Assembly (NCBI GenBank): GCA_050737995.1
Contig: JBOHYR010000066.1
Span: 41,864-105,863, forward strand
Source: Rhodanobacteraceae bacterium
Lineage (GTDB): Bacteria; Pseudomonadota; Gammaproteobacteria; Xanthomonadales; Rhodanobacteraceae
Length of the DNA: 64,000 bases
Direction: 5' to 3'
The notes under the pieces were generated by a model that was not told the DNA's origin, did no database searches, and was given only the letters and a program-made list of their open reading frames with translations. The translations under genes and the position numbers were made by a program. This document shows, in pieces, positions 40,917 through 64,000 of the stretch; within the stretch, counting starts at the first letter, position 1; each line of letters opens with the position of its first letter.

Positions 40917-41503
40917 TCGGCCGTCTGCGTGGCAAACTGATCGTCAAGCGTCCGCCATGGGTGCTTGTCGAGGTAGGCGGCGTCGGTTATGAGCTGGAAG
41001 TGCCGATGTCCACCCTGTACGACTTGCCGGACGTCGGCAGCGAAGTGTTATTGCTGACGCACTATGCGCACAAGGAGGATACCGTCGCGCTCTACGGTTT
41101 CCTGCGCGACGAGGAGCGCGTCTTGTTCCGCGACCTGCAGAAGGTTTCGGGGATCGGCGCACGAATCGCGCTCGCCGTACTCTCGGGCGTCTCGACATCC
41201 GAGTTCGCGCGGTTGGTGCAGACCGGCGATATCGCGGCGCTCACGCGCGTACCCGGCATCGGAAAGAAGACGGCCGAACGCATCGTGGTCGAGCTGCGCG
41301 ATCGCGTTACGCAGACTGCACCCTCCACGCCGCAGGGAAGCGCGCCGCTGCCGCGTGGTGCGCGCGGAGAAGCCGAGGCCGCATTGCAACAGCTCGGCTA
41401 CAAGCCAGCCGAAGCCGTACGCCTCGCCGCGGCGGCTTCGGCCGATGGTGACGACGCCGAGACGATCATCCGCAAGGCGCTGCGGGCGGCATTGGGGCGG
41501 TGA
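40913..41503 (+). CDS. ruvA: Holliday junction branch migration complex subunit RuvA
   Basis: (V)IGRLRGKL N-terminus and HhH motifs ([22 protein letters not shown]). The GTG at 40913 overlaps the ruvC stop. Confidence 0.93.
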
Positions 41504-43404
41504 TGAGTACGACCCCTGCCGAAACCGCCGGCTCCGATTCCGGCAAGAAGGCGATGCGGACGATGGTCGTCGGTGCGATCGGTGTAGTGTTCGGCGATAT
41601 CGGCACCAGCCCGCTGTATACCCTGCAGGAAGCCTTCAGCGGCGAACACGGCATACCACCGCATCCGTTCAACATTCTCGGCGTGCTGTCGCTGGTGGTA
41701 TGGACGCTGGTGATCGTGGTGGCCTTCAAGTACATCACCTTGATCATGCGCGCCGACAACAAGGGCGAAGGCGGCATCATGGCAATGATGGCGTTGGCGC
41801 AGCGCGCCACACGCGACTACCCGCGCACCCGCAAGTTGGTGGCGTTGGCCGCCGTGCTGGGTGCCGCGTTGTTTTTCGGCGATGGCGTGATCACGCCATC
41901 GATCACCACGCTGTCCGCGATCGAGGGCCTCCGCGTTGCCGCACCCGCATTGTCGCATTGGGTTGTCTGGGTTGCGGTGGGCGTGTTGTTGGGCGTGTTC
42001 TGGTTCCAGAAGCACGGCACGGGGCGCGTGGGAAGTGTGTTCGGACCGGTCATGTGCCTGTGGTTCGTGTGCATCGGTCTGGTCGGTCTCTACAACATCG
42101 TGCAGCACCCGTTGGTATTGCGCGCGGTCAATCCGTGGTACGGCGTCAACTTCTTCCTCCACCACGGTGCGGACAGCTTTCTGGTTCTCGGTGCTGTAGT
42201 GCTGTGCGTGACCGGCGCCGAGGCGTTGTATGCGGACATGGGCCACTTCGGACGCAACCCGATCCGGGTCGCTTGGTATGCGTTCGTGATGCCCGGACTT
42301 CTTTTGAACTACTTCGGGCAGGGTGCGTTGTTGCTGCATCATCCTGAAGCGGCCAGCAACCCGTTCTACCTTGCGATCCCGAAGTGGGGTCTGTATCCGA
42401 TGATCGCGCTTGCCACCGCGGCCGCGGTAATCGCTTCGCAGGCGGTGATTTCCGGCACCTTTTCGATCACGCGTCAGGCGATCCAGCTCGGTTTCCTGCC
42501 GCGCATGCCGGTGGTACACACCTCGCACGAGGAAATCGGGCAGATCTATTTGCCGTGGATCAACCGCATCCTGCTGATCATGGTGGTGCTGGTGGTGATC
42601 GGGTTCGGTTCGTCCCTTGCGCTGGCTGGCGCGTACGGGATCGCGGTCACCGGCAGCATGACCATCGACACCACGCTGTTCCTGATCGTGGCGTGGCGGA
42701 TGTGGAAATGGAATCCCGCATTGGTCGCACTGTTGGGGCTTGGCCTGCTGACAGTCGATCTTTCGTTCTTCGGCGCCAACACGCTGAAACTGCTGGACGG
42801 CGGCTGGTTCCCGCTGGTGCTGGCGCTTGCGGTGTTCACGGTCCTGACAACCTGGCGGCGTGGCAGGGAGCTGGTACTGCGCCAACTCAAGCATGGCGGA
42901 CTGGCGCTGGCACCATTCATCGCGAACCTCGCCGAGCATCCGCCGACGCGCGTGGAAGGCACCGCCATTTTCCTGGTCAGCGATCCCGACGCCGTACCAC
43001 ATGCGCTGCTGCACAACCTCAAGCACAACAAGGTGCTGCACAAGCGCAACGTGATCCTGACCGTCGATACGCTGGAAACCCCATACGCCGATCGCGACGA
43101 GCGGATCGAGATCGCCGACCTCGGACATGATTTCCACCGGCTGATCCTGCGCTTCGGCTTCGCCGAGGATCCGGACGTGCCGAAGGCACTGCACGAGTGC
43201 AGCAAGCAGGGACTCGATTTCAAACTGATGGACACGACGTTCTTCCTGTCGCGTGAAACCATCGTCGCCACCGACCGCGCCGGCATGGTCCGGTGGCGGG
43301 ACAAACTGTTCGCGTTCCTCGCCCGCAACGCGCTGCCTGCGACCGCGTTCTTCAGCATTCCCGGCAATCGCCTGATCGAACTGGGTGCGCAGGTCGAGAT
43401 TTAG
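41500..43404 (+). CDS. kup: KUP/HAK/KT family potassium transporter (copy 1)
   Basis: GDIGTSPLY and ADNKGEGG motifs, 12 TM segments plus a cytoplasmic C-terminal domain. The start overlaps the ruvA stop (GTGATG at 41500-41505). Confidence 0.93.
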
Positions 43405-43499
43405 CGTCTCGGGCGTACGCGGTGGCGCGCAGATAGAATGGCCGCCCTTCCAGAGTCGCGCTCCGGCAATTGGCCCTTTAAGGTGTGCGTCCAAGACCC

Positions 43500-45395
43500 A
43501 TGACTTCGACCGTCGGTGTGAACGAGCCCCCCTCTGCTCCCTCGCTGCGTGCGCTGACGATCGGCGCGGTCGGCGTAGTGTTCGGCGACATCGGCACCAG
43601 CCCCTTGTACGTACTGCAGGAAGTCTTCAGTAGCCAGTACGGTCTCGGCATCAGCCGCGTGACCGTGTTGGGCGTACTGTCGCTGGTGTTCTGGTCGCTG
43701 ATGCTGGTGGTGACCCTCAAATACGTGATCTTCGTGATGCGTGCTGACAACAAGGGCGAGGGCGGCATCATGGCGTTGCTCGCGCTGGCGCAGCGGAGTG
43801 TGCGCGGGATGCCGAGACTTCGCTGGCTGGTCGTGCTGGCCGCGATTTTCGGCGCCGCGCTGTTCTACGGCGATGGCGTGATCACTCCGGCGATCTCGGT
43901 GCTGTCGGCAGTGGAAGGCGTCAAGGTCGCCGAACCCTCGCTGGCGCGCTTGGTAGTGCCGATCAGCGTCGCGATCCTGCTGCTGTTGTTTTTGCTGCAG
44001 AAATACGGTACCGCGAAGGTCGGCGCGGTGTTCGCGCCAGTGATGTGTGTGTGGTTCGTAGTGATCGCGCTGCTCGGCCTGCATATGATCCTGCGTGGAC
44101 CGCAGATTCTGACCGCGCTGAACCCGTACTACGCAATCCGGTTTTTCAATTCACATGGTATCGCCGCGTTCGTGGCGCTGGGTGGCGTGGTGCTGGCAGT
44201 CACCGGCACCGAGGCCCTGTACGCCGACATGGGACACTTCGGCAAGTCACCGATCCGACGTGCATGGTTGTTCTTCGTGTTTCCGGCGTTGCTGCTGAAT
44301 TACTTCGGCCAAGGTGCGCTGCTGCTGCGCAATCCGCACGCGAGCGGTAATCCGTTTTACCTGCTGGTACCCCGTGCGCTGCTGTTCCCAATGATCGCGC
44401 TGGCCGCGGCGGCTACGGTGATTGCCTCGCAAGCCGTAATTTCGGGCGCGTTCTCGATGACCCGTGAAGCCGTGCAGCTCGGCTATTCGCCAAGGATGCA
44501 GGTGGTGCATACCTCGAGCCGCGTGTCGGGGCAGATCTTCGTACCGGGGATCAACTGGATGCTGTTGGTGCTGGTGTTGCTGGCGGTGGTCGGTTTCCGC
44601 TCTTCCGAAAATCTTGGCGCCGCGTATGGCATCGCGGTGACCGGTACGATGGTCATCACAACCCTGTTGGCGTTGCTGGTGGCATGGCGCATGTGGCACT
44701 GGAAATGGCCGCTTGTGATCGCGCTGGGGATCCCCATGCTGATCATCGATTGTGCATTCTTCAGCGCCAACCTGCTGAAGGTCGAGCACGGGGGCTGGTT
44801 TCCGCTGGTGTTGGGCCTTGCTGTGTTCACGGTGATGACCACCTGGCGCCGGGGCCGCGAACTGGTGCTGCGCCAACTCAAACACGGCGGTCTCGCGCTC
44901 GCGCCGTTTATTGCCAGCATTGCAGAACACCCACCGACCCGCGTGCCCGGCACCGCTGTGTTCATGACCGCCAACCTGAGCGCGGTGCCGCATGCCCTGT
45001 TGCACAGCCTGAAGCACTTCAAGGCGCTGCACGCACGCAATGTGCTGCTTAGCGTCGAAACGCTGGAGACGCCATTCGCCGACCCCAGCGAACGAATCGA
45101 ACTGCATGACCATGGCCATTCCTTCCATACCGCGACGCTGCGTTTTGGCTTCGCCGAGGATCCCGACGTGCCTGCGGCGTTGGCCGAATGTTCCAAACAT
45201 GGCCTCGTGTTCGACATGATGGATACCACGTTCTTCCTGTCCCGCGAGAACGTGGTTGCCACCAAACGTCCCGGCATGGCGCCGTGGCGGGACAAACTGT
45301 TCGCGTTCCTCTCTCGCAACGCCTTGCCCGCCACCGCGTTCTTCCACATCCCCGGCAATCGGCTGGTCGAGCTGGGCACGCAGGTCGAAATCTGA
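43500..45395 (+). CDS. kup: KUP/HAK/KT family potassium transporter (copy 2)
   Basis: Same motifs and length as copy 1, and collinear along the whole protein. Confidence 0.93.
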   Translation: MTSTVGVNEPPSAPSLRALTIGAVGVVFGDIGTSPLYVLQEVFSSQYGLGISRVTVLGVLSLVFWSLMLVVTLKYVIFVMRADNKGEGGIMALLALAQRSVRGMPRLRWLVVLAAIFGAALFYGDGVITPAISVLSAVEGVKVAEPSLARLVVPISVAILLLLFLLQKYGTAKVGAVFAPVMCVWFVVIALLGLHMILRGPQILTALNPYYAIRFFNSHGIAAFVALGGVVLAVTGTEALYADMGHFGKSPIRRAWLFFVFPALLLNYFGQGALLLRNPHASGNPFYLLVPRALLFPMIALAAAATVIASQAVISGAFSMTREAVQLGYSPRMQVVHTSSRVSGQIFVPGINWMLLVLVLLAVVGFRSSENLGAAYGIAVTGTMVITTLLALLVAWRMWHWKWPLVIALGIPMLIIDCAFFSANLLKVEHGGWFPLVLGLAVFTVMTTWRRGRELVLRQLKHGGLALAPFIASIAEHPPTRVPGTAVFMTANLSAVPHALLHSLKHFKALHARNVLLSVETLETPFADPSERIELHDHGHSFHTATLRFGFAEDPDVPAALAECSKHGLVFDMMDTTFFLSRENVVATKRPGMAPWRDKLFAFLSRNALPATAFFHIPGNRLVELGTQVEI

Positions 45396-51913: not shown

Positions 51914-52612
51914 ATGACGCCGGGACAATCTGAACCGCGCAAGGCGGTGGTGCTTGTCTCGGGTGGCATGGATTCAGCGGTCACGCTGGCGCTCGCGCAG
52001 GAATCCGGTTTCGTGTGTTACTCGCTATCGGTCGCCTACGGACAACGGCATGCCTCGGAACTCGTCGCCGCCGCGCGCGTCGCGGCGATGCTCGGCGCCG
52101 TCGGGCACAAAACCGTGTCGATCGACCTGCGCAGCATCGGTGGTTCGGCCCTGACCTCCGACATCGCGGTGCCAGAGTATTCCGACACACACGGCGAGCA
52201 CGCTATCCCGGCCACCTACGTGCCTGCACGCAACACCATCATGCTGGCTATCGCGCTGGGTTGGGCGGAAACGTTGGCTGCCAGCGATTTGTTCTGCGGC
52301 GTCAACGCGGTCGATTATTCCGGTTACCCGGATTGCCGGCCGGAATTCGTGGAAGCATTCGAACGCCTCGCCAATCTCGCGACCCGCACAGGTGTCGGAG
52401 GTGCGGAATTGCGCGTGCATGCACCGCTTATCGACAAGTCCAAGGCCGATATCGTGCGTGAGGGAATGCGTCTGGGCGTCGACTTCTCCGCCACGGTTTC
52501 CTGCTATCGCGCCGATGCCAAGGGACGTGCCTGCGGTCACTGCGACGCGTGCGTACTGCGCGCGCGTGGATTCGCGGACGCTGGTGTCGCCGACCCGACG
52601 CACTACGTTTGA
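51914..52612 (+). CDS. queC: 7-cyano-7-deazaguanine synthase
   Basis: VSGGMDS PP-loop and a C-terminal Cys cluster, CGHCDAC. Confidence 0.93.
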
Positions 52613-52679
52613 TGCCAGTTGCCGTTACAATGCGCGGCTTGTCATGATCGTCGTGATGACGAGCATGCCTGTTGTTCCA

Positions 52680-52754
52680 GGGCCGTTAGCTCAGCGGTAG
52701 AGCAGTGGACTTTTAATCCATTGGTCGATGGTTCGATCCCATCACGGCCCACCA
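52680..52754 (+). tRNA. tRNA-Lys (anticodon TTT)
   Basis: Manual cloverleaf: acceptor GGGCCGT/ACGGCCC, D-arm GCTC-AGCGGTA-GAGC, anticodon arm GTGGA-CTTTTAA-TCCAT, T-arm GATGG-TTCGATC-CCATC. CCA is encoded. Confidence 0.93.
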
Positions 52755-53140
52755 ATTTAATCAATAACTTGTGATGACGACGTCCAATGGCAACACGTAG
52801 AATAAGGAAAAAGTCCCCACACAATCCCCATTTGGCGTGATTTCGATTCCCAGGGTCACAAGTGCCAACATTGGGGGAGACTGCACTGCCCAATCACTGC
52901 TTATCGACCATGATCGCTGCTGGTGTCGGAGCGACAATTCGCAGCGAAGATGGCTTGGAGTAAGCGGAATTGTTGGTCGCTCATGCGCCGTCGCGACGAA
53001 TAGTCACTGGACCTGCTGGATGGTGCGCCGTCGCTGCGGCGTGGCAACCCGAAGCGTTACGCGCAAGCGGATCTCTCGACGTGTGGTAACTTTCGACTTA
53101 CCGCCATCGCGATCCTCGACAAACACGGAAAGAATGCTTG

Positions 53141-53425
53141 ATGCCGACGAAGCAGAAGAAACGACTGACACTGCAGGAGCTGCGTGAAAATCCCGATCGT
53201 TACCCCGGAATCATGCAGACCGCAGAGTCGTTCAAAAAGGTCGTTGCTCGCTTTCTCGCGGCCAAAAGGGAAGCCGAGGAAGTGTTTGAAAGTCTGCGCG
53301 ACGCGGACATGGATGAATCTGTGGCGTACTGCCGGGGCCATCCGCTGAGCCCGGAAGCTGTCGCGGCCTTGATCTATGTGGCGCATCGGGCACTGATGTT
53401 GGAGCAAGTGAAAGCTGGAGCCTAG
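53141..53425 (+). CDS. Hypothetical small helical protein (no family recognised)
   Basis: 94-aa ORF from the ATG at 53141, in the lower-GC stretch that follows tRNA-Lys. No motif was recognised and coding status is unproven. Confidence 0.35.
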   Translation: MPTKQKKRLTLQELRENPDRYPGIMQTAESFKKVVARFLAAKREAEEVFESLRDADMDESVAYCRGHPLSPEAVAALIYVAHRALMLEQVKAGA

Positions 53426-53566
53426 TCCAGGCCGTCTTGGCCCGGCGGACTTCGATGCTCGCCCGGGAACGGCGTCTAGCGCAGCGCTACGGCAATCGAC
53501 AGGCAGCTCATTACTTCAAACGTGCGCTGGCGTTGCGCGAGCAGCATGCTCGGAATAGGCATGCAC

Positions 53567-54532
53567 TCATCGAACCGCAGAGGGTCGTTCAGGCGCGCGG
53601 ATTGATTTTCGTTGCGGGTGCGCGCGGCGCAGGCAATCCAAGATGATTTGGACCAGGCGCGATGGTGGTGGCGAGCGCCGGAAAATGGCTGCGAACTGAC
53701 AGTTGTAATGGAAGCGAGTCGGATACAGCGGACGCAACTGCTTCTGCGTCTCGAATAGACGGGCGTAGTGGGTGGGAAGGAAGCCGACGAAGCGTCCTGA
53801 GAGGATCAGCGTGGCGACGGCTTCCTGATCTGATGCCTCGGCTGCGCGCTCCAGCCCGAGGCTGTTGCCAGTCTCCATGTTCGGCGAGTGAAACGCCAAT
53901 CCTGCGTACCGATGTGCCCACACCTCGCGTTCTTGGCCGGACACGTCGGGGCGCTCGAACAGTGGATGGCCGCGACCGCAATACAGGCGCATCTGTTCAT
54001 AGAACAACGGCAAGTACTCGAGCGCTGGTGACGGCCGGTGGGTTGGAATGATGCCGACTTGCCAGACGTTGTCGATAACTCCAGCCTCGATCCGGTGGGT
54101 AGGAGCAACGTCAAGCTCGACCTTCACGTCCGGTGCGCGGGAAGCGAAGGCGCCCAGAGCATCTGCGATGTGCGAATCCGGATTGGTCACCGTTTTGTCG
54201 AACAATACGAGGCGCAACCTACCCCGTACGCGATCGTTGATTTCCCCCACTTCTGTGCGGAACTGACTCACCGCAGTCAGCAACCGCTCGGCCGCCTCGA
54301 ATACCCGGGTGCCCTCGTCCGTCATAGCGAATCCGGACCGTCCGCGATGGCAGAGCGTGGTGCCGAGGCGCTCCTCGAGTGCCTTGAGGTGGCGGCTGAT
54401 GGTAGAGCGCCCGATGTTCAGCTCTGACTCCGCGGCCGTCAATCCGCCGCAGCGGACGACAGCTTGGAAAAGTCTCAACTCGCGAAGGCCCGCGTCGGCG
54501 AGCACTGGAGTCCGAATGGTTGATTGTTTCAT
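53567..54532 (-). CDS. LysR family transcriptional regulator
   Basis: N-terminal HTH (LRLFQAVVRCGGLTAAESELNIGRSTISRHLKALEERLG) and a LysR substrate-binding domain. It is divergent from the TonB-dependent receptor genes. Confidence 0.88.
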   Translation of the reverse strand: MKQSTIRTPVLADAGLRELRLFQAVVRCGGLTAAESELNIGRSTISRHLKALEERLGTTLCHRGRSGFAMTDEGTRVFEAAERLLTAVSQFRTEVGEINDRVRGRLRLVLFDKTVTNPDSHIADALGAFASRAPDVKVELDVAPTHRIEAGVIDNVWQVGIIPTHRPSPALEYLPLFYEQMRLYCGRGHPLFERPDVSGQEREVWAHRYAGLAFHSPNMETGNSLGLERAAEASDQEAVATLILSGRFVGFLPTHYARLFETQKQLRPLYPTRFHYNCQFAAIFRRSPPPSRLVQIILDCLRRAHPQRKSIRAPERPSAVR

Positions 54533-54847
54533 TTTGATGAAACTCAGGTTGGCTTCACAGCCGTTTACACAACCTTAGCGCATGTGTAGCGTTACAGAGA
54601 AGGGCTTCATGAGCGTCGGAGTCGAGAGGCAATGTCAGAGTAACGGCCATCTTTTGCTTTCATGAGCTAAATGGCTGACCGCCACCACCGAGTACCGGCG
54701 GCCCGAGTGAACCAATGCCTGCAGCGTGGCCGGGCGTTTGGCCAGCTCGTGTCGCCCGTGTGCCGGATCACGCCCCGGCTTGCTGCAAGCGTACGCAGCG
54801 AGTCAAGCAGTAAGTAAGAAACCAACGAACGCATTCTCGAGGGGGCT

Positions 54848-55110
54848 ATGAAAACGGACCCGAATACGATGTCAATAGCGATGCTTGCTGCGCTATGCGC
54901 AGGTGCTGCCTCGGCGGCCGGTGTACCGGCACGGCCTTCGCGCAAAACACGTCTCCAGGCGCGACGGCACAAACGAGTAGCAACGAAATCACGGTCGCAT
55001 TGCAGACCATCACGGTCACCGGTTCACAGCCTCGTCGCTTGGAACTCGAGATTGATAATCCGGCGGTTACGGTAACCAGCTAGCAAATCCAGCAGACGGG
55101 AAAGCTGGCT
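54848..55110 (+). pseudogene. 5' stub of a TonB-dependent receptor gene (frameshift, in-frame stop, 3' truncation)
   Basis: It starts ATGAAAAC like the intact receptor. The signal peptide is in one frame. A second frame reads TAFAQNTSPGATAQTSSNEITVALQTITVTGSQPRRLELEIDNPAVTVTS-stop-QIQQTG, collinear with residues 1-90 of the 55166 receptor (TLQTIEVTGSHISRAEVETDNPVIVLGSSQIQQTG). Confidence 0.6.
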
Positions 55111-55165
55111 CGGCGGTTCAGCGCGAGTCGGAAATCAAATGTAACAGTTAAAGACCGGAGGGGTT

Positions 55166-58078
55166 ATGAAAACAAGTCAGCGTTCACTGTCCGTGGCGAT
55201 ACGCGCAATACTACTCGCTGGGACCGCAGTTATGGGTTGCAGTGCCGGGGTCGCAGTTGCGCAGGATGCGACGCAAAGTGCGACACCGCAAGCGGACAGT
55301 AAGTCCAATATGACGACCCTGCAGACGATCGAGGTCACCGGTTCGCACATCAGCCGGGCGGAGGTTGAGACAGATAATCCAGTTATTGTCTTAGGGAGCA
55401 GCCAAATCCAACAAACGGGCAGTCTTACATTGGGGGATTTAGTAGCGCGCCTACCCCAAATAACTGGCTTGGTAACGAATAGTACAACTGGTGGTGGGAC
55501 GACACTTGTGGGCTTGCGTGGCTTAGGGTCGAGTCGCACTCTAATCCTTATCGACGGGCAACGAGTAGTTAATAAAGATCTCAACTCAATACCAATAGCC
55601 GCAGTGGAGCGCGTCGAGGTACTGCCTAGCGGTGCGTCTGCGATTTATGGGTCAGATGCAATTGGCGGTGTGATTAATTTTATTACGAAGAGTAACTATA
55701 GTGGTGCACAAGTGATGCTCAACTATGGAATATCGAATCATGACGATGGACAACGGAGTGGCGAAAACTTTATGTTTGGCCAAGCGTCAGACAAGGGTAG
55801 CATTCTGGTGGATGTTGCCCACGCTAAGTTTGGCGCAATCGACGCGCAAAGCCGGGCGTTTGCTGCCCATACACTGTTTCTGAACCCACAGGGGGATGGG
55901 TTTACCGCAGGCGGGACAAACTTCGCACCCCGCGGCTTCATCGTCGTGTCACCAACGTTGTCGACTGAGTTCGGCTGCCCGTCAGGCGGTGCGTTGGGGC
56001 TAAACCAAGACGTCTTCGCTAGCGGTGAAAGCCCAACTCGACCGGGAGATTACCATTGCTGGGGGACGGAGCCTGGTGACCTGTATGACTTTCAGGCGAA
56101 CGGCAATCGGGTTGTGAATCCGTCCGAAAGTACCAACGTGATGTTCAAAGGCACATACCACGTAACGCCAAATATTGAACTCTTCGCAACTTATTATCAC
56201 TATCAGGACAAGCAAAGCATACAGGTCTGGCCCTCCGTCTTTGGTACCAGGAGCGTCGGCGGGCAGACCATAAGTGCAGACAGCTATTATAACCCGTTTG
56301 GTGTGGATTTTTCAGATCCTGATGGTGCAGCGCTCAGCACGCTGCTGTTTAACATTGGAACGCTACGATACTTTAACTCAACGAATACAACTGACCAACT
56401 AATAAGCGGGGTCAAGGGACACTTGAGTGTCTTCAACCATCGCTGGGATTGGGATGTCGGCTTCAATTTTGGTCACTTGTTGTCCAACGTCCACCTTATC
56501 GGGTGGCCGAATCAACCGTTTCTGCTACAGGGGCTGGGACCGTCGTTCCTGAATACCGCCGGTGTGGTGCAGTGCGGCACAGCCGCGGATCCAATTAGCC
56601 TCAGCACTTGCGTGCCTTGGGATCCGTTTAACATGAACTCGCCATCTGCGCTGGCAACGGTGGCGAAGGCAAATGCGCCCGTAGCAAACTCTACATGGCA
56701 GATTGAACGGACGTATCACGCGGACGTTACAGGTGGCGTGTTGGATCTCCCGGCCGGTACTGCGCAGTTGGCCATGGGTATATCGTACCGAGAGGAGTAT
56801 TCGAATAACTTCATTGGCGCGCTTCAGACGAATCCACCACCTCCGTCTACTCAACTTTGTGGCTTGGGAAGTCAGTGTTCGGCGCACCTAAACGGCGGCT
56901 TCAACGTCAAAGAAGCATACGCTGAGTTGTTTATCCCGATCCTGCAAGATTTGGCATTCGCACATGGCCTGAATGTGACACTGGCAGATCGCTACTCGAA
57001 ATATAGCGACTTCGGCAGCACTAATAACTGGAAGGTTGGAGTTGAGTACCGCCCGGTCACAGATTTGCTGTTGCGAGGGACTGTCTCGCAAGTGTTCCGT
57101 GCGCCGACGATATCTGATCTCTTCACCGCGCCGCAGAGTACCGCGACCTTTCTCGCGAAAGACCCATGCGATGGCATCAAGACTCCAGGCAACCCCGCGT
57201 GTGTAGGAGTCCCAACGGACGGGAGCTTTCAGAGCTTATATGACGGCAATGCCCTTCAGCTGAGGGCGCAGACCGAGGGTGCGGAAGCTGCAGGGTTCCC
57301 GATACAGCCAGAGAGGGGCAAGTCGTTCGACTTTGGCTTCGTTTATTCGCCACATCAGATTCCTGGACTCTCGGTAAGTCTCGATCAATGGCGCATTTAT
57401 CTCAATGATAACATCACACAGATTTCGGCTCAGACAGTTGTAAACGAGTGCTACAGCGGGAATTTGTTGTTTTGCAAGTTCATCCAGAGGACTCAGGGAG
57501 GGCCTGGCGCAGGGCAGTTGACACTGGTGATTCTTCCCGATGGGAATTTGGGCCGTCTAGATGTAAAGGGTACCGATTTATCGTTAGTCTACAAATTACC
57601 TGCGACGAGACTAGGTCGGTTCCAAGTTAGCGTAAACGGAACGTATTTGGATCAGTACAAAGTGCAGACTGCGCCTGGTCAAGTTAGCAATACAGCTGTC
57701 AACCTCGCTGGTACACAAGGGAATATTATAGCTCAGCTGTTTCCTCGCGTCCGAGCGTTGGGTAGTGTTGGTTGGACGCTCGGACCGTGGGAGGCAGAAT
57801 GGACACTGCACTACATCGGCAAGTTTGTTGACCAAGAATATATGAATGGAGACTGTCACGAGAGCTTCAGTTGTTTTGGGTCGTGGGTATATAATGACGT
57901 GAGCTTGGGCTATCACGTTAAGCCGATTAAGTCGTTGATCCAGGTTGGAGTGGACAACGTATTTGACAAGGAACCTCCTCTCCTGGGCACAAACATTGGG
58001 AACGCGTCGAATACGGACGCCGATAACTTTGATGTTGTTGGCAGGTATTATTGGGCGCGCCTTACTGTGAACTTCTGA
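55166..58078 (+). CDS. TonB-dependent outer membrane receptor
   Basis: 970-aa ORF with a signal peptide, a plug region (TLQTIEVTG, VERVEVLPSGASAIYGSDAIGGVINFITK), a long beta-barrel and a terminal aromatic residue (RLTVNF). Its GC and codon usage are clearly lower than the neighbours. Confidence 0.92.
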   Translation: MKTSQRSLSVAIRAILLAGTAVMGCSAGVAVAQDATQSATPQADSKSNMTTLQTIEVTGSHISRAEVETDNPVIVLGSSQIQQTGSLTLGDLVARLPQITGLVTNSTTGGGTTLVGLRGLGSSRTLILIDGQRVVNKDLNSIPIAAVERVEVLPSGASAIYGSDAIGGVINFITKSNYSGAQVMLNYGISNHDDGQRSGENFMFGQASDKGSILVDVAHAKFGAIDAQSRAFAAHTLFLNPQGDGFTAGGTNFAPRGFIVVSPTLSTEFGCPSGGALGLNQDVFASGESPTRPGDYHCWGTEPGDLYDFQANGNRVVNPSESTNVMFKGTYHVTPNIELFATYYHYQDKQSIQVWPSVFGTRSVGGQTISADSYYNPFGVDFSDPDGAALSTLLFNIGTLRYFNSTNTTDQLISGVKGHLSVFNHRWDWDVGFNFGHLLSNVHLIGWPNQPFLLQGLGPSFLNTAGVVQCGTAADPISLSTCVPWDPFNMNSPSALATVAKANAPVANSTWQIERTYHADVTGGVLDLPAGTAQLAMGISYREEYSNNFIGALQTNPPPPSTQLCGLGSQCSAHLNGGFNVKEAYAELFIPILQDLAFAHGLNVTLADRYSKYSDFGSTNNWKVGVEYRPVTDLLLRGTVSQVFRAPTISDLFTAPQSTATFLAKDPCDGIKTPGNPACVGVPTDGSFQSLYDGNALQLRAQTEGAEAAGFPIQPERGKSFDFGFVYSPHQIPGLSVSLDQWRIYLNDNITQISAQTVVNECYSGNLLFCKFIQRTQGGPGAGQLTLVILPDGNLGRLDVKGTDLSLVYKLPATRLGRFQVSVNGTYLDQYKVQTAPGQVSNTAVNLAGTQGNIIAQLFPRVRALGSVGWTLGPWEAEWTLHYIGKFVDQEYMNGDCHESFSCFGSWVYNDVSLGYHVKPIKSLIQVGVDNVFDKEPPLLGTNIGNASNTDADNFDVVGRYYWARLTVNF

Positions 58079-58458
58079 TGTCATCCGTGCTACGTTAGTC
58101 GTTGCGCCGCGCCGACCGCGCGCAATGCTGCCGACAGCCGGCTTCCGTAGCCGAGTAGACGCGTGGAAGTGCGCGGAGCGTTACTACGAGGTATAACGGA
58201 AATTTGGGTTCAACGTTCACTTCGCCGTATCGACGGGTTCGAGCGCAATTTAGACATTTTTGCCTGTAGCGATACTCGATACGAGCTTTGACATGGTAGG
58301 TGGCACACGCTGTAGGCAGTTCACATCAATACACTGCCGATCCCGGACCGCGTTCTCTGGGTGAGAATAGGCCCGAAAGCCTCATCTATATTGACGGGTT
58401 TTGGTGACACTCTGCGACTACGTCCACCACGGGTTGCATTGATAGGAGGCAACAAACC

Positions 58459-59835
58459 GTGAGCAGCGATCGTATTACGAGCGCGACCGAGACAAACACT
58501 GACGCGCGGGCGCGTGACCAAGCCCATGTATTCCACTCTTGGTCTGCACAAAAGCACATCAATCCGCTCCCGATTGCACGGGCCAAAGGCTCGGTATTCT
58601 GGGATTACGACGGGCATCGCTACCTCGACTTTGCTTCGCAGCTGGTGTACCTCAATCTTGGTCATCAGCACCCTGAAATGGTGGCAGCGATCGTCACGCA
58701 GGCACAAACGCTGACGACGTGCGCGCCGGGTTTTGCGAACGACGCACGCTCAGAGGCGGCGCGCTTGATTTCGGAAATTGCGCCGGGCGACCTCAACAGG
58801 GTTTTCTTCACCAGCGGAGGTGCCGAAGCAAACGAACATGCGATGCGCATGGCGCGGCGCCACACTGGGCGGCTCAAGATACTGGCGGCCTACCGCAGCT
58901 ATCACGGTGCGACCGCAGGAGCGATCGCGGCGACCGGCGACCCGAGGCGATGGGGTTCCGAGCCGGCTGCGCCGGGGGTGGTGCACTTTTGGGGTCCGTA
59001 CACCTACCGGTCAGCGTTCCACTCGAACAGCGAGCGGGAGGAGTGCGAGCGCGCCTTGACCCATTTGCGCGACATGGTCATGGTCGAAGGCGCGGACACG
59101 ATCGCGGCGATCCTGCTTGAAACCGTTGTCGGAACCAATGGCATATTGGTGCCGCCAGATGGTTACCTAGTCGGGGTGCGCAATCTCTGCGACGAGTTCG
59201 GCATCCTGTTCATCGCCGATGAGGTCATGGCCGGGTTCGGTCGCTGTGGCGAATGGTTTGCCGTAGACCACTGGAAGGTGACGCCCGATCTCATCACCTT
59301 CGCCAAGGGAGTCAACTCGGGCTACGTGCCTCTGGGTGGGGTGATCATCTCCGAGCGCATCGCTCGCAGTTTCGACGATCAAGTCTATCCGGGCGGGTTG
59401 ACTTATTCGGGTCACCCGCTGGCCTGTGCCGCCGCTGTGGCGTCCATCGGCATTTTCAAGCGCGAAAATCTCATCGCACGCGCCCGTGCCTTAGGCGAAG
59501 ATATCATCGGGCCAGGGTTGCGCGCGTTGGCCGAACGCCACCCCAGCGTCGGTGACGTCCGAGGCCTCGGCGCCTTCTGGGCCGTAGAACTGGTAAAGAA
59601 CCGCGAAACCCGAGAGCCGCTGGTACCGTTCAACGCCAAAGGTATGGCAGCCGCGCCCATGGCCGAATTTGCGCAAGCGTGCAGGGACGGCGGACTATGG
59701 CCGTTCGTCCATTTCAACCGAACGCATGTGGTTCCACCACTGACAACTACGGCAGAGGAGATTCGTGAAGGCATCGCCATCTTGGATCACGCGCTCGCCA
59801 CACCAGATAAGTATTGCGTGGGCCGGCCAGGATAG
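58459..59835 (+). CDS. Class III (omega-amino acid:pyruvate type) aminotransferase
   Basis: GTG start with an AGGAGG SD. Motifs: TSGGAEANE, ADEVMAGFGRCG and the PLP-lysine context TFAKGVNSG. Substrate cannot be assigned by eye. Confidence 0.85.
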   Translation: MSSDRITSATETNTDARARDQAHVFHSWSAQKHINPLPIARAKGSVFWDYDGHRYLDFASQLVYLNLGHQHPEMVAAIVTQAQTLTTCAPGFANDARSEAARLISEIAPGDLNRVFFTSGGAEANEHAMRMARRHTGRLKILAAYRSYHGATAGAIAATGDPRRWGSEPAAPGVVHFWGPYTYRSAFHSNSEREECERALTHLRDMVMVEGADTIAAILLETVVGTNGILVPPDGYLVGVRNLCDEFGILFIADEVMAGFGRCGEWFAVDHWKVTPDLITFAKGVNSGYVPLGGVIISERIARSFDDQVYPGGLTYSGHPLACAAAVASIGIFKRENLIARARALGEDIIGPGLRALAERHPSVGDVRGLGAFWAVELVKNRETREPLVPFNAKGMAAAPMAEFAQACRDGGLWPFVHFNRTHVVPPLTTTAEEIREGIAILDHALATPDKYCVGRPG

Positions 59836-59909
59836 CCAGCAGCCGGTTGCCTTGGCGGGAACGTGTGCGTCAAGCAGTGTACTGATTTAGTTGTAGCGGA
59901 GAACTGAAT

Positions 59910-61439
59910 ATGCAAACCAACAGCATTGCCGCGACCAAGGATCCGGTATCCATCGTCCACTTCATCAACGGTCAGCGAGCCCCTGGTACGGGCGAGCGCA
60001 CAGAGGACGTCTACAATCCTGCCACTGGAGAAGTCACCGGCAGACTGCATATCGCGGACCAAAATGACGTGGACCGTATCGTCAAGACGGCCAAACAAGC
60101 TGGCCTTGCATGGGCAGAGACGTCGCTGACCGCACGTACCCGTGTCCTGTTCAATTTTCGCGAGCGACTCGCGGCGGCAACGGATGAGTTGGCTGCGATT
60201 ATCACAGCCGAACACGGCAAGGTGCTCGCCGACGCCAAGGGTGAAATCGCTCGTGGGTTGGAGACGGTGGAATTCGCGTGCGGCCTGATCGAGCAATTGA
60301 AGGGCGGCTATTCGAGCCAAATATCGACGGACATCGATGTATTTTCTATCCGTGAACCCTTGGGTGTCGTCGCCGGTATAACCCCGTTCAACTTCCCGGC
60401 GATGGTGCCGTTGTGGATGGCGCCCGTTGCGATCGCGACTGGGAATGCATTCATCCTCAAACCTTCGCCGCGCGACCCGTCGGCGTCACTGGTATTGGCG
60501 CGCCTGTGGCAGGAAGCGGGACTGCCAGACGGCGTGTTCAGCGTCTTGCAAGGCGACAAAGAGGCCGTTGACGGATTGTTGGCACATCCCGACGTCGATG
60601 GCATTTCATTTGTTGGATCCACGCCAATCGCCAAGTACGTGCATCAAACAGCAACCGCCCATGGCAAGCGAGTGCAGGCGTTGGGTGGCGCGAAGAATCA
60701 TGCTGTTATCCTGCCGGATGCCAACATGGATCTCGCGGCTGACCACCTCAGCGCTGCAGCTTTTGGCTCGGCCGGACAGCGTTGCATGGCCATCTCAGTA
60801 GCCGTAGCCGTTGGCAAAGCGGCCGACGCGCTGGTTAACGAAGTGGTGGACCGTGCGGGCAAAATCACCGTCAACGAGGGCACCAACAGCAAGTCGGACA
60901 TGGGACCGCTCATCAGCCCGCAAGCCAAGGATCGGGTCATTCGGATCGTGAGCGAGGCCGAGAGGGACGGAGCCAAGATCACCGTGGACGGGCGTGGTCT
61001 CGTAGTCAAGGGTCATGAGCACGGTTTCTTCGTTGGCCCGACGGTGGTAGATCGGGTGGCAACTGGAATGAGCGTCTACCGTGAGGAAGTCTTCGGCCCT
61101 GTCCTCTCGGTGATGCGTGTCGCCAACGTCGATGATGCCATCAGTTTGATCAACGCCAATCCCTACGGCAACGGCACCGGCATCTTCACCAGTTCCGGCG
61201 CGTATGCGCGCAAGTTCCAGCGAGGTGTGAAGGTTGGCATGGTCGGAATCAACGTTCCCATTCCCGTGCCCATCGCTTGGTACAGCTTCGGCGGATGGAA
61301 CGACTCGTTGTTCGGCGACCTTCACATATACGGATCCGATGGTGTGCGTTTCTACACACGCAAGAAAGTCGTGACGCAGCGCTGGCCCGAGTCCGAGCAC
61401 GCTTCGGGCGCATCATTCGCGTTCCCGTCATCCCACTAA
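59910..61439 (+). CDS. mmsA: CoA-acylating methylmalonate/malonate-semialdehyde dehydrogenase
   Basis: MmsA hallmarks: catalytic GQRCMA, GINVPIPVPIAWYSFGGW, and the FYTRKKVVTQRW tail. Confidence 0.9.
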   Translation: MQTNSIAATKDPVSIVHFINGQRAPGTGERTEDVYNPATGEVTGRLHIADQNDVDRIVKTAKQAGLAWAETSLTARTRVLFNFRERLAAATDELAAIITAEHGKVLADAKGEIARGLETVEFACGLIEQLKGGYSSQISTDIDVFSIREPLGVVAGITPFNFPAMVPLWMAPVAIATGNAFILKPSPRDPSASLVLARLWQEAGLPDGVFSVLQGDKEAVDGLLAHPDVDGISFVGSTPIAKYVHQTATAHGKRVQALGGAKNHAVILPDANMDLAADHLSAAAFGSAGQRCMAISVAVAVGKAADALVNEVVDRAGKITVNEGTNSKSDMGPLISPQAKDRVIRIVSEAERDGAKITVDGRGLVVKGHEHGFFVGPTVVDRVATGMSVYREEVFGPVLSVMRVANVDDAISLINANPYGNGTGIFTSSGAYARKFQRGVKVGMVGINVPIPVPIAWYSFGGWNDSLFGDLHIYGSDGVRFYTRKKVVTQRWPESEHASGASFAFPSSH

Positions 61440-61649
61440 TGGGTCAGAGTTTGGATGGAACAGTCATGGTGAGTGGTCGATGGCAAGTTGTGGATGACGC
61501 CCAGGGCTTTGTAGCAGCCAATGGCGCAACAAGCCGGGCTTCGCGTGCCCGTCCGGTTCGGTCGCGTAGCTTGTTGGTTTCGGCGTACGCGGGCGAAGCT
61601 CCTGACGTCACGCAAGCTTCGCGCGTTGCTAGAAATATGGGGTTCGGTC

Positions 61650-63146
61650 ATGGCTAATAAGGTGTCCGCGGGTTCCGTCAGCGATCTACTGCAAAGCGAA
61701 TTTGGTGTGGACAGCACCCGCAACTTCATCGATGGTAAGTGGCGTCGTCCGGAGTCCGGCAATACTTGGCCCATCGAAAATCCCTCGACCGGCGAAACGG
61801 CCGGTCAGATCGCGCGTGGTTCCACCAAAGACATCGACGACGCGCTCCGTGCCGCTCGCAAGGTCCAGCAAGGCGCCTGGGGGTTCATGACCGCCACGGA
61901 ACGTGGTCGCATCATGATGAAGGTCTCGCAGCTGGTATTGGAACGAGCCGACAGCCTGGCGCGGATCGAGGCGCTTGACGTCGGTAAGCCACTTGGCCAG
62001 TCGCTCACAGACGCCAAAGCACTGGCCCGTTACTTCGAGTTCTATGCCGGTGCGGCCGACAAGCTCATGGGCTACACGGTGCCCTATCAGGCCGGCTTCG
62101 TGGTCCGCGTCGAACGTGAACCCTACGGTGTGGTGGCGATCATCATCCCCTGGAATTATCCCATGCAGATCATCGGGCGCGCAGTCGGCGGTGCGCTCGC
62201 GGCGGGCAATGCCGTAGTCATCAAGCCATCGGAAGACGCCTCGGCTACGACCTTGGCCGTTGCGGCAATCGCGCACGAAGCCGGCCTGCCGCGTGGCGCC
62301 CTGAATGTTGTCTGCGGGCTGGGTGGTGAAGTTGGCTCCGCGTTGTCCGGACACCCGGGCGCAGACTACGTGTCCTTCACCGGTTCGGTCAAAACAGGGA
62401 GCCTGATCCAGGCCGCTGCGGCGCGCAACGTCCGGCCGATCAGCCTCGAACTCGGGGGCAAGTCGCCACACATCGTGTTCGACGACTGCGATCTCGACCA
62501 CGCGATGCCGACGCTCGTTGGTGCATGCATGCAGAATGCCGGGCAGACGTGTTCGGCCGCCTCCCGGGTGCTTGTGCAGCGCGGCGTCTACGATGAAGTG
62601 AAGCGGCGCATGGCGGAGATATACTCCGGCCTCACCGCCGGGCCGGCTATGGAGAACTATGACCTTGGCCCGATCATCTCCGCGATGCAGCAGGCGCGGG
62701 TCACCGGCTACATCGACGCCGGCAAGGCGGACCTCCACGTCGCCGCCGAAGGTTCGATCGCGAGCGGCGCGCCCAAGTCCGGGCACTATGTGCGTGCGAC
62801 GCTGTTTTCCGAAGTGCCCGCCAGTCACAAGCTGTTTCAGGAAGAAGTGTTCGGACCGGTGCAGGTGCTGACGCCGTTCAAGGACGAAGAGGAAGCGGTG
62901 TGTCTGGCCAACGGCACCCCGTACGGGCTTGTCGCCGGCGTGTGGACCCGCGATGGCGGCCGCCAGATGCGCATGGCGCGCCGGCTTCGCTGTGGGCAGG
63001 TGTTCGTGAACAACTACGGTGCGGGTGGCGGCATCGAGCTGCCATTCGGCGGCGTGGGAGCATCCGGTCACGGACGCGAGAAGGGCTTCGAAGCGCTTTA
63101 TGAATTTACCCAGCTGAAGACGATCACGACTTTCCATGGTGCGTGA
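61650..63146 (+). CDS. NAD(P)-dependent aldehyde dehydrogenase family protein
   Basis: SFTGS, ELGGKSP, catalytic Cys in GQTCSAASR, and EEVFGPV. The ATG at 61650 was preferred over the 61521 run-on. Confidence 0.88.
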   Translation: MANKVSAGSVSDLLQSEFGVDSTRNFIDGKWRRPESGNTWPIENPSTGETAGQIARGSTKDIDDALRAARKVQQGAWGFMTATERGRIMMKVSQLVLERADSLARIEALDVGKPLGQSLTDAKALARYFEFYAGAADKLMGYTVPYQAGFVVRVEREPYGVVAIIIPWNYPMQIIGRAVGGALAAGNAVVIKPSEDASATTLAVAAIAHEAGLPRGALNVVCGLGGEVGSALSGHPGADYVSFTGSVKTGSLIQAAAARNVRPISLELGGKSPHIVFDDCDLDHAMPTLVGACMQNAGQTCSAASRVLVQRGVYDEVKRRMAEIYSGLTAGPAMENYDLGPIISAMQQARVTGYIDAGKADLHVAAEGSIASGAPKSGHYVRATLFSEVPASHKLFQEEVFGPVQVLTPFKDEEEAVCLANGTPYGLVAGVWTRDGGRQMRMARRLRCGQVFVNNYGAGGGIELPFGGVGASGHGREKGFEALYEFTQLKTITTFHGA

Positions 63147-63325
63147 GGCGGCGCGCGACTGTCGGATTGCAGGAAGAAATCTGCACAGGGTTCGCTTATG
63201 GCCGCCGTGTTGGCGTGGCGTCGATTGTCGGGGCGGTCGATCAGCCGTCAGCTTGGGTGTGTACGCCGAATGAATGCAACGTTCGTCACTCGCGAAACGA
63301 TTATCTAACACAAGGAAACCGCACC

Positions 63326-64000
63326 ATGCACCAATCACGTTTAGTTCCTAGACTTGTCGCGGCCCTGATCCTGTGCACGATTGCTGGGGCGACCGCCGCG
63401 GTGGCCGCGCCAGCGCCGGTGACCACGGCGAAGCCCGGGTTGACGGACACCATCGTAGACGTTCCCGGTATCGAGGTTGGCCAATACCAGCAGGACAAGG
63501 ACGGCTTTCTGACCGGCACGACGGTGGTATATGCGCCCGGCAGAGCAGTCGCCGGGGTGGATGTCGCCGGCGGCGCCCCCGGTACCCGCGAAACCGACCT
63601 GCTCGCACCCGACGAACTGGTGCAGCATGTGAACGCCATTGTGTTGAGTGGCGGCAGCTCATATGGGCTGATTTCCGCATACGGCGTCATGGATTGGCTG
63701 CGCGAACACAAGCAGGGTTTCCGCGTCGGCAAGGATCCATCCGATGTGGTGCCGATCGTGCCAGGGGCGATCATTTTCGATCTTGGACGCGGCGGCCGTT
63801 TTACTGCGACGCCGACGCCGGAGTTCGGCTATAAGGCCATTTCCTCTGCGAGTACCGCAGCGGTAAAGCAGGGCACGGTTGGTGCCGGCACCGGCGCCTT
63901 CTCAGGTCCCCTGAAGGGCGGTGTCGGTTCGGCCAGCGTGGTCTTGCCGAACGGTTACGTCGTGGGTGCCATCGTTGTACTCAACAGCGCCGGCAGCACC
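63326..64000 (+). CDS. Secreted P1/S58 family peptidase (DmpA/BapA-like aminopeptidase), 3' partial at window end
   Basis: This ORF is not in the supplied track because it has no stop in the window. The ATG at 63326 has an AAGGAA SD. The signal peptide is MHQSRLVPRLVAALILCTIAGATAAVAAPA. GTRETDLL and NAIVLSGGSSYGL motifs are typical of the S58 family. Confidence 0.75.
   Translation, partial: MHQSRLVPRLVAALILCTIAGATAAVAAPAPVTTAKPGLTDTIVDVPGIEVGQYQQDKDGFLTGTTVVYAPGRAVAGVDVAGGAPGTRETDLLAPDELVQHVNAIVLSGGSSYGLISAYGVMDWLREHKQGFRVGKDPSDVVPIVPGAIIFDLGRGGRFTATPTPEFGYKAISSASTAAVKQGTVGAGTGAFSGPLKGGVGSASVVLPNGYVVGAIVVLNSAGST

Follow-up and report, generated by a model that had tools for sequence, protein, structure and literature searches.

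We analysed a 64,000-nucleotide stretch of DNA from a Rhodanobacteraceae bacterium (contig JBOHYR010000066.1, positions 41,864 to 105,863; hereafter, the window), focusing on the catabolic locus at its right-hand end. The most likely function of the locus is to scavenge the pantetheine/pantothenate (vitamin B5) portion of coenzyme A (CoA) and break it down completely, a reading that we hold with modest confidence and that derives from protein families and gene neighbourhoods. The locus comprises 11 genes in about 16.4 kb. A lysR gene on the minus strand is followed on the plus strand by the genes of a TonB-dependent receptor (TBDR), a class-III aminotransferase (AT), MmsA, a second aldehyde dehydrogenase (ALDH2), an S58 hydrolase, an HIBADH-like dehydrogenase, a TTC-type dehydrogenase, an amidase, a DUF3311 protein, and a sodium:solute symporter (SSS). 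The genes visible in the window are only the first half of the locus. An initial annotation of the window had named the LysR, TBDR, AT, MmsA, second aldehyde dehydrogenase, and S58 genes downstream of a tRNA-Lys; all were recovered on the strands given there by Pfam, NCBIfam, and ARAGORN, and its proposal of a TBDR-headed, LysR-flanked catabolic locus was borne out.

The window was extended by an exact-protein look-up of MmsA, which retrieved contig L001 (15,018 bp), identical to the window at 8647 of the 8648 overlapping bases. On L001, the plus-strand run goes on past the window end; the S58 gene is completed (380 aa) and is followed by the co-directional HIBADH-like, TTC, amidase, DUF3311, and SSS genes, with gaps of at most 120 bp. 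Coordinates past the window are those of L001, and the window equivalents given beside them are extrapolated. The initial annotation had seen no transporter before the window end, which is correct for the window itself; the DUF3311/SSS transporter lies just past it.

The S58/P1 self-processing hydrolase was compared with all PDB sequences. The best match was ThnT, with 49.5% identity over 329 aligned residues (E 3.7e-71, 243 bits), followed by the polyamide (nylon) hydrolase 9CXR (E 1e-36, 130 bits), NylC (E about 1e-13, about 53 bits), BapA 3N2W (E 2.7e-9, 40 bits), and the D-aminopeptidases (E about 5e-5, about 25 bits). By sequence, the protein is thus ThnT-like by far among solved structures and not of the BapA/DmpA type to which it had first been assigned. 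The gene starts at ATG 63326 on the plus strand, and the first 225 of its 380 codons occupy 63326-64000 before it runs off the window. The Peptidase_S58 domain (PF03576) was detected with E 1.5e-37 in the 225 in-window residues and with E 9.7e-60 in the full 380 aa. The self-processing site, which the initial annotation had suggested looking for beyond base 64000, is intact on L001 between N276 and T277, within MNTTIAVVATNA. Residues N276, T277, and T278 do not vary among 12 homologues. As in ThnT, Thr is the nucleophile, and the self-cleavage motif MN/TTIAVVATNA is aligned to LN/TTLAVVATDA of ThnT. The N-terminus, MHQSRLVPRLVAALILCTIAGATAAVA followed by AP, was judged by eye to be a Sec-type signal, as the initial annotation had suspected, with an AXA site. 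In the thienamycin cluster, ThnT cleaves the pantetheinyl amide and frees cysteamine after ThnR and ThnH trim CoA by way of phosphopantetheine to pantetheine (PMC6097109); according to a 2026 review, no other pantetheine hydrolase is known from microbes (PMC13602198). We propose that the window S58 protein is a periplasmic pantetheine hydrolase.

The resulting pantetheine/pantothenate model uses every gene of the locus, and each of its enzymatic steps was assigned from family membership, homology, and gene context. The TBDR would carry pantetheine, or a larger phosphorylated precursor (phosphopantetheine or CoA-sized), across the outer membrane, and the exported S58 hydrolase would split pantetheine into pantothenate and cysteamine in the periplasm. 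Pantothenate would be imported by the DUF3311/SSS symporter and hydrolysed to pantoate and beta-alanine by the cytoplasmic amidase, acting as a pantothenase (EC 3.5.1.22). The HIBADH-like dehydrogenase would then convert pantoate to aldopantoate (EC 1.1.1.106), ALDH2 would convert aldopantoate to (R)-3,3-dimethylmalate (EC 1.2.1.33), and the TTC enzyme would yield 2-oxoisovalerate and CO2 (EC 1.1.1.84). Beta-alanine would be transaminated to malonate semialdehyde by the AT and oxidised to acetyl-CoA by MmsA, which may have a second role in the later, valine-type breakdown of 2-oxoisovalerate. Control of the genes is presumably exerted by the divergent LysR protein. The enzymology of bacterial vitamin B5 degradation dates from the 1960s. 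In the classical pathway, pantoate is oxidised at C4 to aldopantoate, then to 3,3-dimethyl-D-malate and 2-oxoisovalerate, and the last enzyme also accepts D-malate. The pathway of Pseudomonas P-2 and P. fluorescens and its EC numbers reportedly stem from 1966 papers of Goodhue, Snell, Magee, and Nurmikko and from IUBMB entries.

The locus encodes two amide hydrolases, the exported S58 protein and an amidase without a signal peptide. This fits the pantetheine reading, as pantetheine contains two amide bonds. The amidase-signature amidase (476 aa; plus strand, L001 11320-12750, window equivalent 66672-68102) matched NF005450 with 560 bits against a cut-off of 458 and carries the K91, GGSS164, and GGSIR188 motifs. 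Its best PDB match was GatA (122 bits), NylA scored 92 bits, and no close characterised relative was found there. The DUF3311 gene (plus strand, L001 12812-13150, window equivalent 68164-68502) overlaps by 4 bp the SSS gene (plus strand, L001 13147-14625, window equivalent 68499-69977), which encodes an MctP-like protein of 492 aa.

The HIBADH-like, aldehyde dehydrogenase, and TTC families fit a conversion of CH2OH to CHO and COOH followed by beta-decarboxylation of a D-malate analogue, and would suit the pantoate branch. The HIBADH-like beta-hydroxyacid dehydrogenase (297 aa; plus strand, L001 9237-10130, window equivalent 64589-65482) has NAD_binding_2/11 domains; its best NCBIfam models are of the tartronate-semialdehyde reductase and HIBADH types, all under their cut-offs, and its best PDB match is a tartronate semialdehyde reductase. 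ALDH2 (plus strand, 61521-63146, Aldedh 506 bits) is a 541-aa open reading frame (ORF), and its start is probably ATG 61650 (498 aa), as the orthologues of 496 aa lack the 43-codon N-terminal extension and the aldehyde dehydrogenase domain begins near residue 65. ALDH2 had no equivalog match, and its best PDB match was the uncharacterised 4YWE (610 bits). Orthologues with 55-58% identity adjoin amidase homologues in Variovorax and Ensifer, and adjoin SDR and Iso_dh genes in a Gemmatimonadota metagenome-assembled genome (MAG); we propose ALDH2 as the aldopantoate ((R)-4-dehydropantoate) dehydrogenase. The TTC protein, a tartrate/D-malate-type decarboxylating dehydrogenase (357 aa; plus strand, L001 10164-11237, window equivalent 65516-66589), matched TIGR02089 with 539 bits against a cut-off of 470 and the P. 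putida tartrate dehydrogenase (TDH) 3FLK with 470 bits. It is 100% identical to a protein annotated from a Rhodanobacteraceae MAG, which confirms the xanthomonad-type host assumed in the initial annotation.

For the beta-alanine branch, the AT and MmsA form a pair suited by family to the route from beta-alanine through malonate semialdehyde to acetyl-CoA, in agreement with the initial annotation. MmsA (plus strand, 59910-61439), a CoA-acylating malonate/methylmalonate-semialdehyde dehydrogenase, matched TIGR01722 with 699 bits against a cut-off of 448, and the catalytic motif GQRC292MA is present. The class-III (omega) AT (plus strand, 58459-59835) lacks a signal peptide and matched Aminotran_3 with 322 bits and NF004718 (PRK06062) with 742 bits against a cut-off of 472. 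No beta-alanine-pyruvate transaminase model was among its top 25 NCBIfam matches. Its best PDB match was 6JIX, a taurine:2-oxoglutarate aminotransferase (E 1e-116, 393 bits; next match, 265 bits), so that the bau-type beta-alanine transaminase first envisaged was not found. Taurine is the sulfonate analogue of beta-alanine, and the AT may prefer either beta-alanine or (hypo)taurine. We propose it as a beta-alanine transaminase, and hypotaurine derived from cysteamine may be a second substrate.

The TBDR (970 aa; plus strand, 55166-58078) has Plug and TonB_dep_Rec_b-barrel domains; it carries a signal peptide and a TonB-box-like 'LQTIEVTG' and ends in Phe. The gene has a GC content of 0.52 and a GC content at third codon positions (GC3) of 0.56, against GC3 values of 0.69-0.77 in the neighbouring genes. 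In the related loci L090 and L082, the TBDR at the equivalent position is 801 aa long (61% mutual identity), and its likeness to the window TBDR is limited to the plug; the two are not orthologous. Due to the low GC3 and this non-orthology, the receptor was apparently replaced in the window lineage, and the replacement looks recent. The gap between the TBDR and AT genes is 380 bp in the window versus 84 bp in L090, which fits a cassette-like receptor replacement. A TBDR is nevertheless present in every Gram-negative version of the locus that carries S58 (window, L082, L090, L092, L098, and L120).

The LysR-family regulator (minus strand, 53567-54532; HTH_1 and LysR_substrate domains) is divergent from the catabolic genes, and no NCBIfam equivalog reached its cut-off with this protein. 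Its orthologue, 73% identical, lies at the equivalent position in L090/L091. When the lysR-TBDR intergenic region was compared between the window and L090, conservation was restricted to the approximately 100 bp nearest lysR. An invariant, perfect, strand-neutral palindrome, TTTCAT-N4-ATGAAA (54527-54542), lies there and overlaps the lysR start codon; by its position and conservation, it is a candidate LysR operator or autoregulatory site.

Contigs of close relatives, with enzymes 66-78% identical, retain the whole gene set, so that the neighbourhood, whose conservation the initial annotation had proposed to check, is conserved. L082 and L090/L091 have the same gene order as the window, including the divergent lysR in L090/L091, and L085 shows one rearrangement, with DUF3311-SSS ahead of the amidase. 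The gene content and order shared with these loci indicate an association beyond chance. In L082 and L091, the cluster is flanked by a PF04185 phosphoesterase gene, and since this gene lies upstream of lysR in the relatives, the cluster occupies different genomic contexts.

In a broader comparison, amidase homologues were aligned, the best 80 genomic loci were fetched, and the cluster proteins were mapped onto them by tblastn; genes in the high-GC loci were called with the filter GC3 > GC1 > GC2. In 25 of these 80 loci, a TTC-family gene lay no more than 10 kb from the amidase, and in seven an S58 gene did so. As the TTC and S58 families usually have one or two members per genome, the linkage to the amidase is far above chance by a rough estimate, which is not a computed statistic. 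Pseudomonas was absent among the best 80 loci. In seven Variovorax loci, the genes for the amidase (46-48% identity; same NF005450 model, 731 bits), ALDH2 (54-56%), and the HIBADH-like dehydrogenase (54-56%) are contiguous, and in five of the seven a TTC gene (64-65%) lies about 6.5 kb upstream on the same strand. The interval between the Variovorax TTC and amidase genes is filled by a Dpp-type ABC transporter with SBP_bac_5 (Pfam). On the megaplasmid pT173d of Ensifer canadensis, one annotated operon holds GntR, an aldehyde dehydrogenase (58% to ALDH2), an SDR, a Dpp/peptide-type ABC transporter, an amidase (44%), a LeuB-type dehydrogenase, and a histidine phosphatase. In Actinobacteria such as Humibacillus, the amidase gene is divergent from a TTC-ABC(x5)-S58-ALDH run, accompanied by another S58 gene, whose product is exported, and by a regulator of the GntR type; the metagenomic locus L126, of actinobacterial type, adds an SDR to the TTC-ABC-S58-ALDH arrangement. 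In Pseudosulfitobacter plasmids, the amidase homologue adjoins purine catabolism genes, a context that is uninformative.

The conserved module consists of an amide hydrolase, an alcohol dehydrogenase, an aldehyde dehydrogenase, a decarboxylating dehydrogenase, and a dipeptide-like transporter. Several of its parts are interchangeable, namely the alcohol dehydrogenase (HIBADH-like or SDR), the decarboxylating dehydrogenase (TTC- or LeuB-type), and the transporter (ABC, or TBDR plus SSS). Genes for the four pathway-type activities are linked in the close relatives of the window organism as well as in Variovorax, Ensifer, and Actinobacteria; in the Gemmatimonadota locus, the available DNA contains three of them.

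An S58-anchored metagenome scan, with Pfam assignments, yielded 80 loci, of which 33 span 12 kb or more. SDR, ALDH2, and TTC partners recur beside S58 in L098, L112, L120, L126, and L171. The Gemmatimonadota MAG locus L092, found via an S58 homologue, contains an ALDH2 orthologue (55%)-SDR-Iso_dh set and an aminotransferase together with a true MMSDH (TIGR01722, 597 bits); GntR, an exported S58, and a SusC-like TBDR paired with a TPR/SusD-like protein are also encoded there. The gene order in L098 is TTC<-SDR, then SusC-TBDR-514 aa-ALDH2-calcineurin-like phosphoesterase-S58, and that in L120 is TTC<-SDR<-SSF, then TBDR-484 aa-S58-MBL-fold-AT (MBL, metallo-beta-lactamase). L112 reads S58-SDR-ALDH2-TTC and L171 reads ALDH2-SDR-S58.

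Phosphoesterase-type enzymes of unrelated families also stand beside S58 in the TBDR-type loci. These are PhoD with a TAT signal (L092 2772-4409), an alkaline phosphatase with a Sec signal (L092 11176-13284), a calcineurin-like phosphoesterase (L098 8301-9893), the PF04185 phosphoesterase (L082 13804-15495), and the MBL-fold protein (L120 11065-12171). Their recurrence suggests that the external substrate is often phosphorylated. By analogy with the ThnR/ThnH/ThnT and mammalian routes, such a substrate suggests 4'-phosphopantetheine or CoA.

Four other explanations of the locus were weighed. The main rival, which is rather unlikely, keeps the architecture and chemistry and changes the substrate to another exported or environmental pseudo-dipeptide or hydroxyacyl amide, one that contains both a 2-hydroxy-4-hydroxymethyl acid and a beta- or omega-amino acid and has two amide bonds; candidates are pantoyl-taurine-like and homopantothenate-like compounds and unknown natural products. 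It draws on the family-level nature of all the assignments, on the nearness of the AT to a taurine aminotransferase, and on the Dpp/Opp-type ABC transporters of Variovorax, Ensifer, and Actinobacteria, which would fit any dipeptide-like ligand. The Paralcaligenes ALDH-HIBADH-TTC genes, which occur with two 2-hydroxyacid dehydrogenases and without an amidase, point the same way. Among known natural compounds, however, only pantetheine/CoA explains the ThnT-like hydrolase together with the amidase, the three-step oxidation to a D-malate analogue, the beta-alanine branch, and the phosphoesterases. It is improbable that the locus is a mosaic of adjacent unrelated operons for beta-alanine/taurine (AT, MmsA), for tartrate/D-malate (TTC with the tartronate-semialdehyde-reductase-like enzyme), and for a generic amidase, peptidase, and transporter. 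The TTC score above the tartrate dehydrogenase equivalog cut-off, its 470 bits to P. putida TDH, the best PDB match of the HIBADH-like protein, and the uninformative promoter and terminator scan would all be accommodated by such a mosaic. Against it, the combination recurs, reordered and with non-orthologous replacements, in Gamma-, Beta-, and Alphaproteobacteria, Actinobacteria, and Gemmatimonadota, far beyond chance by the rough estimate above. Moreover, neither the window nor L001 has genes for a tartrate MFS transporter, hydroxypyruvate reductase, or pyruvate kinase; of the ttu-type tartrate utilisation set, only the TTC-type enzyme is present.

The initial annotation had favoured the utilisation of beta-peptides or beta-alanyl peptides, in which a periplasmic BapA/DmpA-type aminopeptidase frees N-terminal beta-amino acids for transamination and oxidation. 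The S58 domain with its signal peptide and intact self-processing site, the adjacent AT and MmsA genes, and a divergent LysR as in bau agree with this scheme, which we now regard as quite improbable: the S58 protein is far closer to ThnT than to BapA or the D-aminopeptidases, the AT is not BauA-type, and the co-conserved amidase, HIBADH-like, ALDH2, and TTC genes, the DUF3311 and SSS genes, and the associated phosphoesterases are left unexplained by a beta-peptide substrate. A nylon-oligomer-like polyamide locus, with NylC-like S58, NylA-like amidase, NylD-like AT, and NylE-like ALDH, is highly improbable. The S58 protein does match polyamide hydrolases (9CXR) and NylC, and the amidase matches NylA, but the S58 scores are much under that of ThnT, the NylA match is no better than generic GatA matches, and MmsA (a C3 semialdehyde enzyme), TTC, and the HIBADH-like protein have no role in that pathway. 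Closest relatives and gene set led us to reject the nylon-oligomer, tartrate-only, and bau-type readings.

Several observations weigh against the pantetheine/pantothenate model itself. The protein families present are no guide to substrate specificity. The S58 subfamily is large: 'P1 family peptidases' that share about 50% identity with the query are numerous in Actinobacteria, Deinococcus, and Gemmatimonadota, and as ThnT is the sole characterised member of the subfamily, 49.5% identity is no proof of pantetheinase activity. The nearest characterised relative of the AT uses taurine, not beta-alanine. TTC relatives at 70-76% identity are very widespread, and the enzyme is of a generalist type. 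The window amidase is 65% identical to a lone Brevibacterium amidase amid housekeeping genes and is farther from the clustered Variovorax and Ensifer ones, and in L084 a 73%-identical amidase occurs in an unrelated context. The amidase was not recovered in L092, L098, and L120, where the sequence downstream of TTC is lacking, nor in L112. Paralcaligenes sp. KSB-10 (L095 6536-12086) has an ALDH-HIBADH-like (64%)-TTC (73%) trio without an amidase. The SSS transporter is MctP-like and no PanF orthologue, and no gene for cysteamine disposal is evident in the locus. Promoter and terminator counts in a scan of 52500-64000 were not above those of shuffles and were uninformative on operon structure.

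Two of these loci showed further features. In L084 (1282-4594), the amidase gene lies directly downstream of genes for acetolactate-synthase-like large and small subunits, with an S58 gene about 10 kb off and a puu-like set nearby (Gln-synt_C, Peptidase_C26, DAO, and an amino-acid permease). Flanking the L095 trio are genes for two D-2-hydroxyacid dehydrogenases and for a regulator of the GntR type, and the trio may be a catabolic operon for free pantoate/pantolactone or another dihydroxy acid.

Compared with known systems, the proposed pantetheine locus is similar to the ThnR/ThnH/ThnT set of Streptomyces cattleya in its S58/P1 hydrolase with the conserved N/T site, and related loci pair S58 with phosphoesterases, echoing the order of phosphatase and then ThnT (PMC6097109). 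The two systems differ in that ThnT is an enzyme of secondary metabolism and provides the cysteamine for an antibiotic, whereas the window S58 protein is exported, catabolic, and located behind a TBDR, and pantothenate, not cysteamine, appears to be consumed. Additionally, the Thn set has Nudix/HAD enzymes in place of the PhoD, alkaline phosphatase, calcineurin-like, and PF04185 phosphoesterases of the related loci. For each of the four steps of the Pseudomonas P-2/P. fluorescens pathway, the window locus offers a chemically suitable family candidate, with the genes co-conserved and beta-alanine disposal genes alongside; that pathway is from another organism, and the membership of the window locus in it is inferred. 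The bau locus of P. aeruginosa likewise has LysR beside an omega-aminotransferase and a malonate-semialdehyde dehydrogenase, but the window AT is of another subfamily (NF004718) and nine further genes of the window locus are without bau counterpart.

The overall plan of a TBDR, periplasmic hydrolase, inner-membrane transporter, cytoplasmic enzymes, and regulator is shared with TBDR nutrient loci such as the Xanthomonas CUT loci and the SusC/SusD polysaccharide utilisation loci (PULs), and the Gemmatimonadota-type versions even have the SusC-like TBDR and TPR/SusD-like partner of PULs. CUT loci and PULs serve glycans, whereas a cofactor fragment is proposed here, and the TBDR is exchangeable between close relatives in the present case. 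We know of no described TBDR locus for a cofactor-fragment (pantetheine/CoA) substrate. Mammalian CoA breakdown by ENPP, alkaline phosphatase, and vanin follows the same logic, with dephosphorylation outside the cytoplasm, cleavage of pantetheine into pantothenate and cysteamine, and pantothenate uptake through a sodium symporter (PMC13602198). Vanins have a nitrilase fold and the window S58 protein is of the S58/P1 Ntn type; animals recycle pantothenate, whereas the window locus appears to burn it.

More tentatively, and with somewhat less than even confidence, we propose that the TBDR- and SusC/D-headed loci and their ABC equivalents in Gram-positive bacteria and some Proteobacteria constitute a widespread, undescribed system that scavenges and fully catabolises extracellular CoA, 4'-phosphopantetheine, pantetheine, and pantothenate. 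The protein identity of pantothenase was 'currently unknown' in 2023 (PMC10393543). In the open-access literature and bioRxiv preprints, we found no paper assigning genes to pantothenate degradation, and a report in a subscription journal is possible. The locus provides one concrete candidate gene per step of the pathway and a comparative framework in which beta-alanine, pantetheinase, phosphoesterase, and TBDR/ABC uptake modules are optional additions to a four-enzyme core. If the pantetheine/pantothenate model is correct, the locus would supply the first gene assignments for pantothenase, pantoate 4-dehydrogenase, dehydropantoate dehydrogenase, and dimethylmalate dehydrogenase, closing four orphan EC numbers, as well as the first primary-metabolic bacterial pantetheinase. 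Environmental bacteria would then compete for and consume CoA-derived vitamins by TonB-dependent uptake, the genes would serve as markers for vitamin B5 turnover in soil and host microbiomes, and pantetheinase and pantothenase enzymes that bear on how stable pantothenamide drugs are would become available.

The closest named relatives of two cluster proteins are actinobacterial, although the host is a gammaproteobacterium: Brevibacterium for the amidase (65-66%) and an Actinomycetota MAG for the AT (74%, locus L041). This suggests an old horizontal transfer of parts of the cluster. As a check for a genomic island, we looked for a repeat of the tRNA-Lys 3' end in the 393 bp of L001 past the last gene and found none there. 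The left boundary of the locus is this tRNA-Lys(ttt) gene (plus strand, 52680-52754, ARAGORN), and the approximately 800 bp between it and lysR (52755-53566) contain no recognisable gene; an ORF at 53138-53425 had a weak, sub-threshold DinB_2 match. Upstream, NCBIfam searches of the ORFs identified a housekeeping block that ends in tRNA-Lys and includes two kup genes, ruvB, tolQRAB-pal-cpoB, and queC. The kup (potassium uptake) genes are both full-length and lie in tandem at 41500-45395, with strong matches to NF008015 and TIGR00794, the TIGR00794 cut-off being passed.

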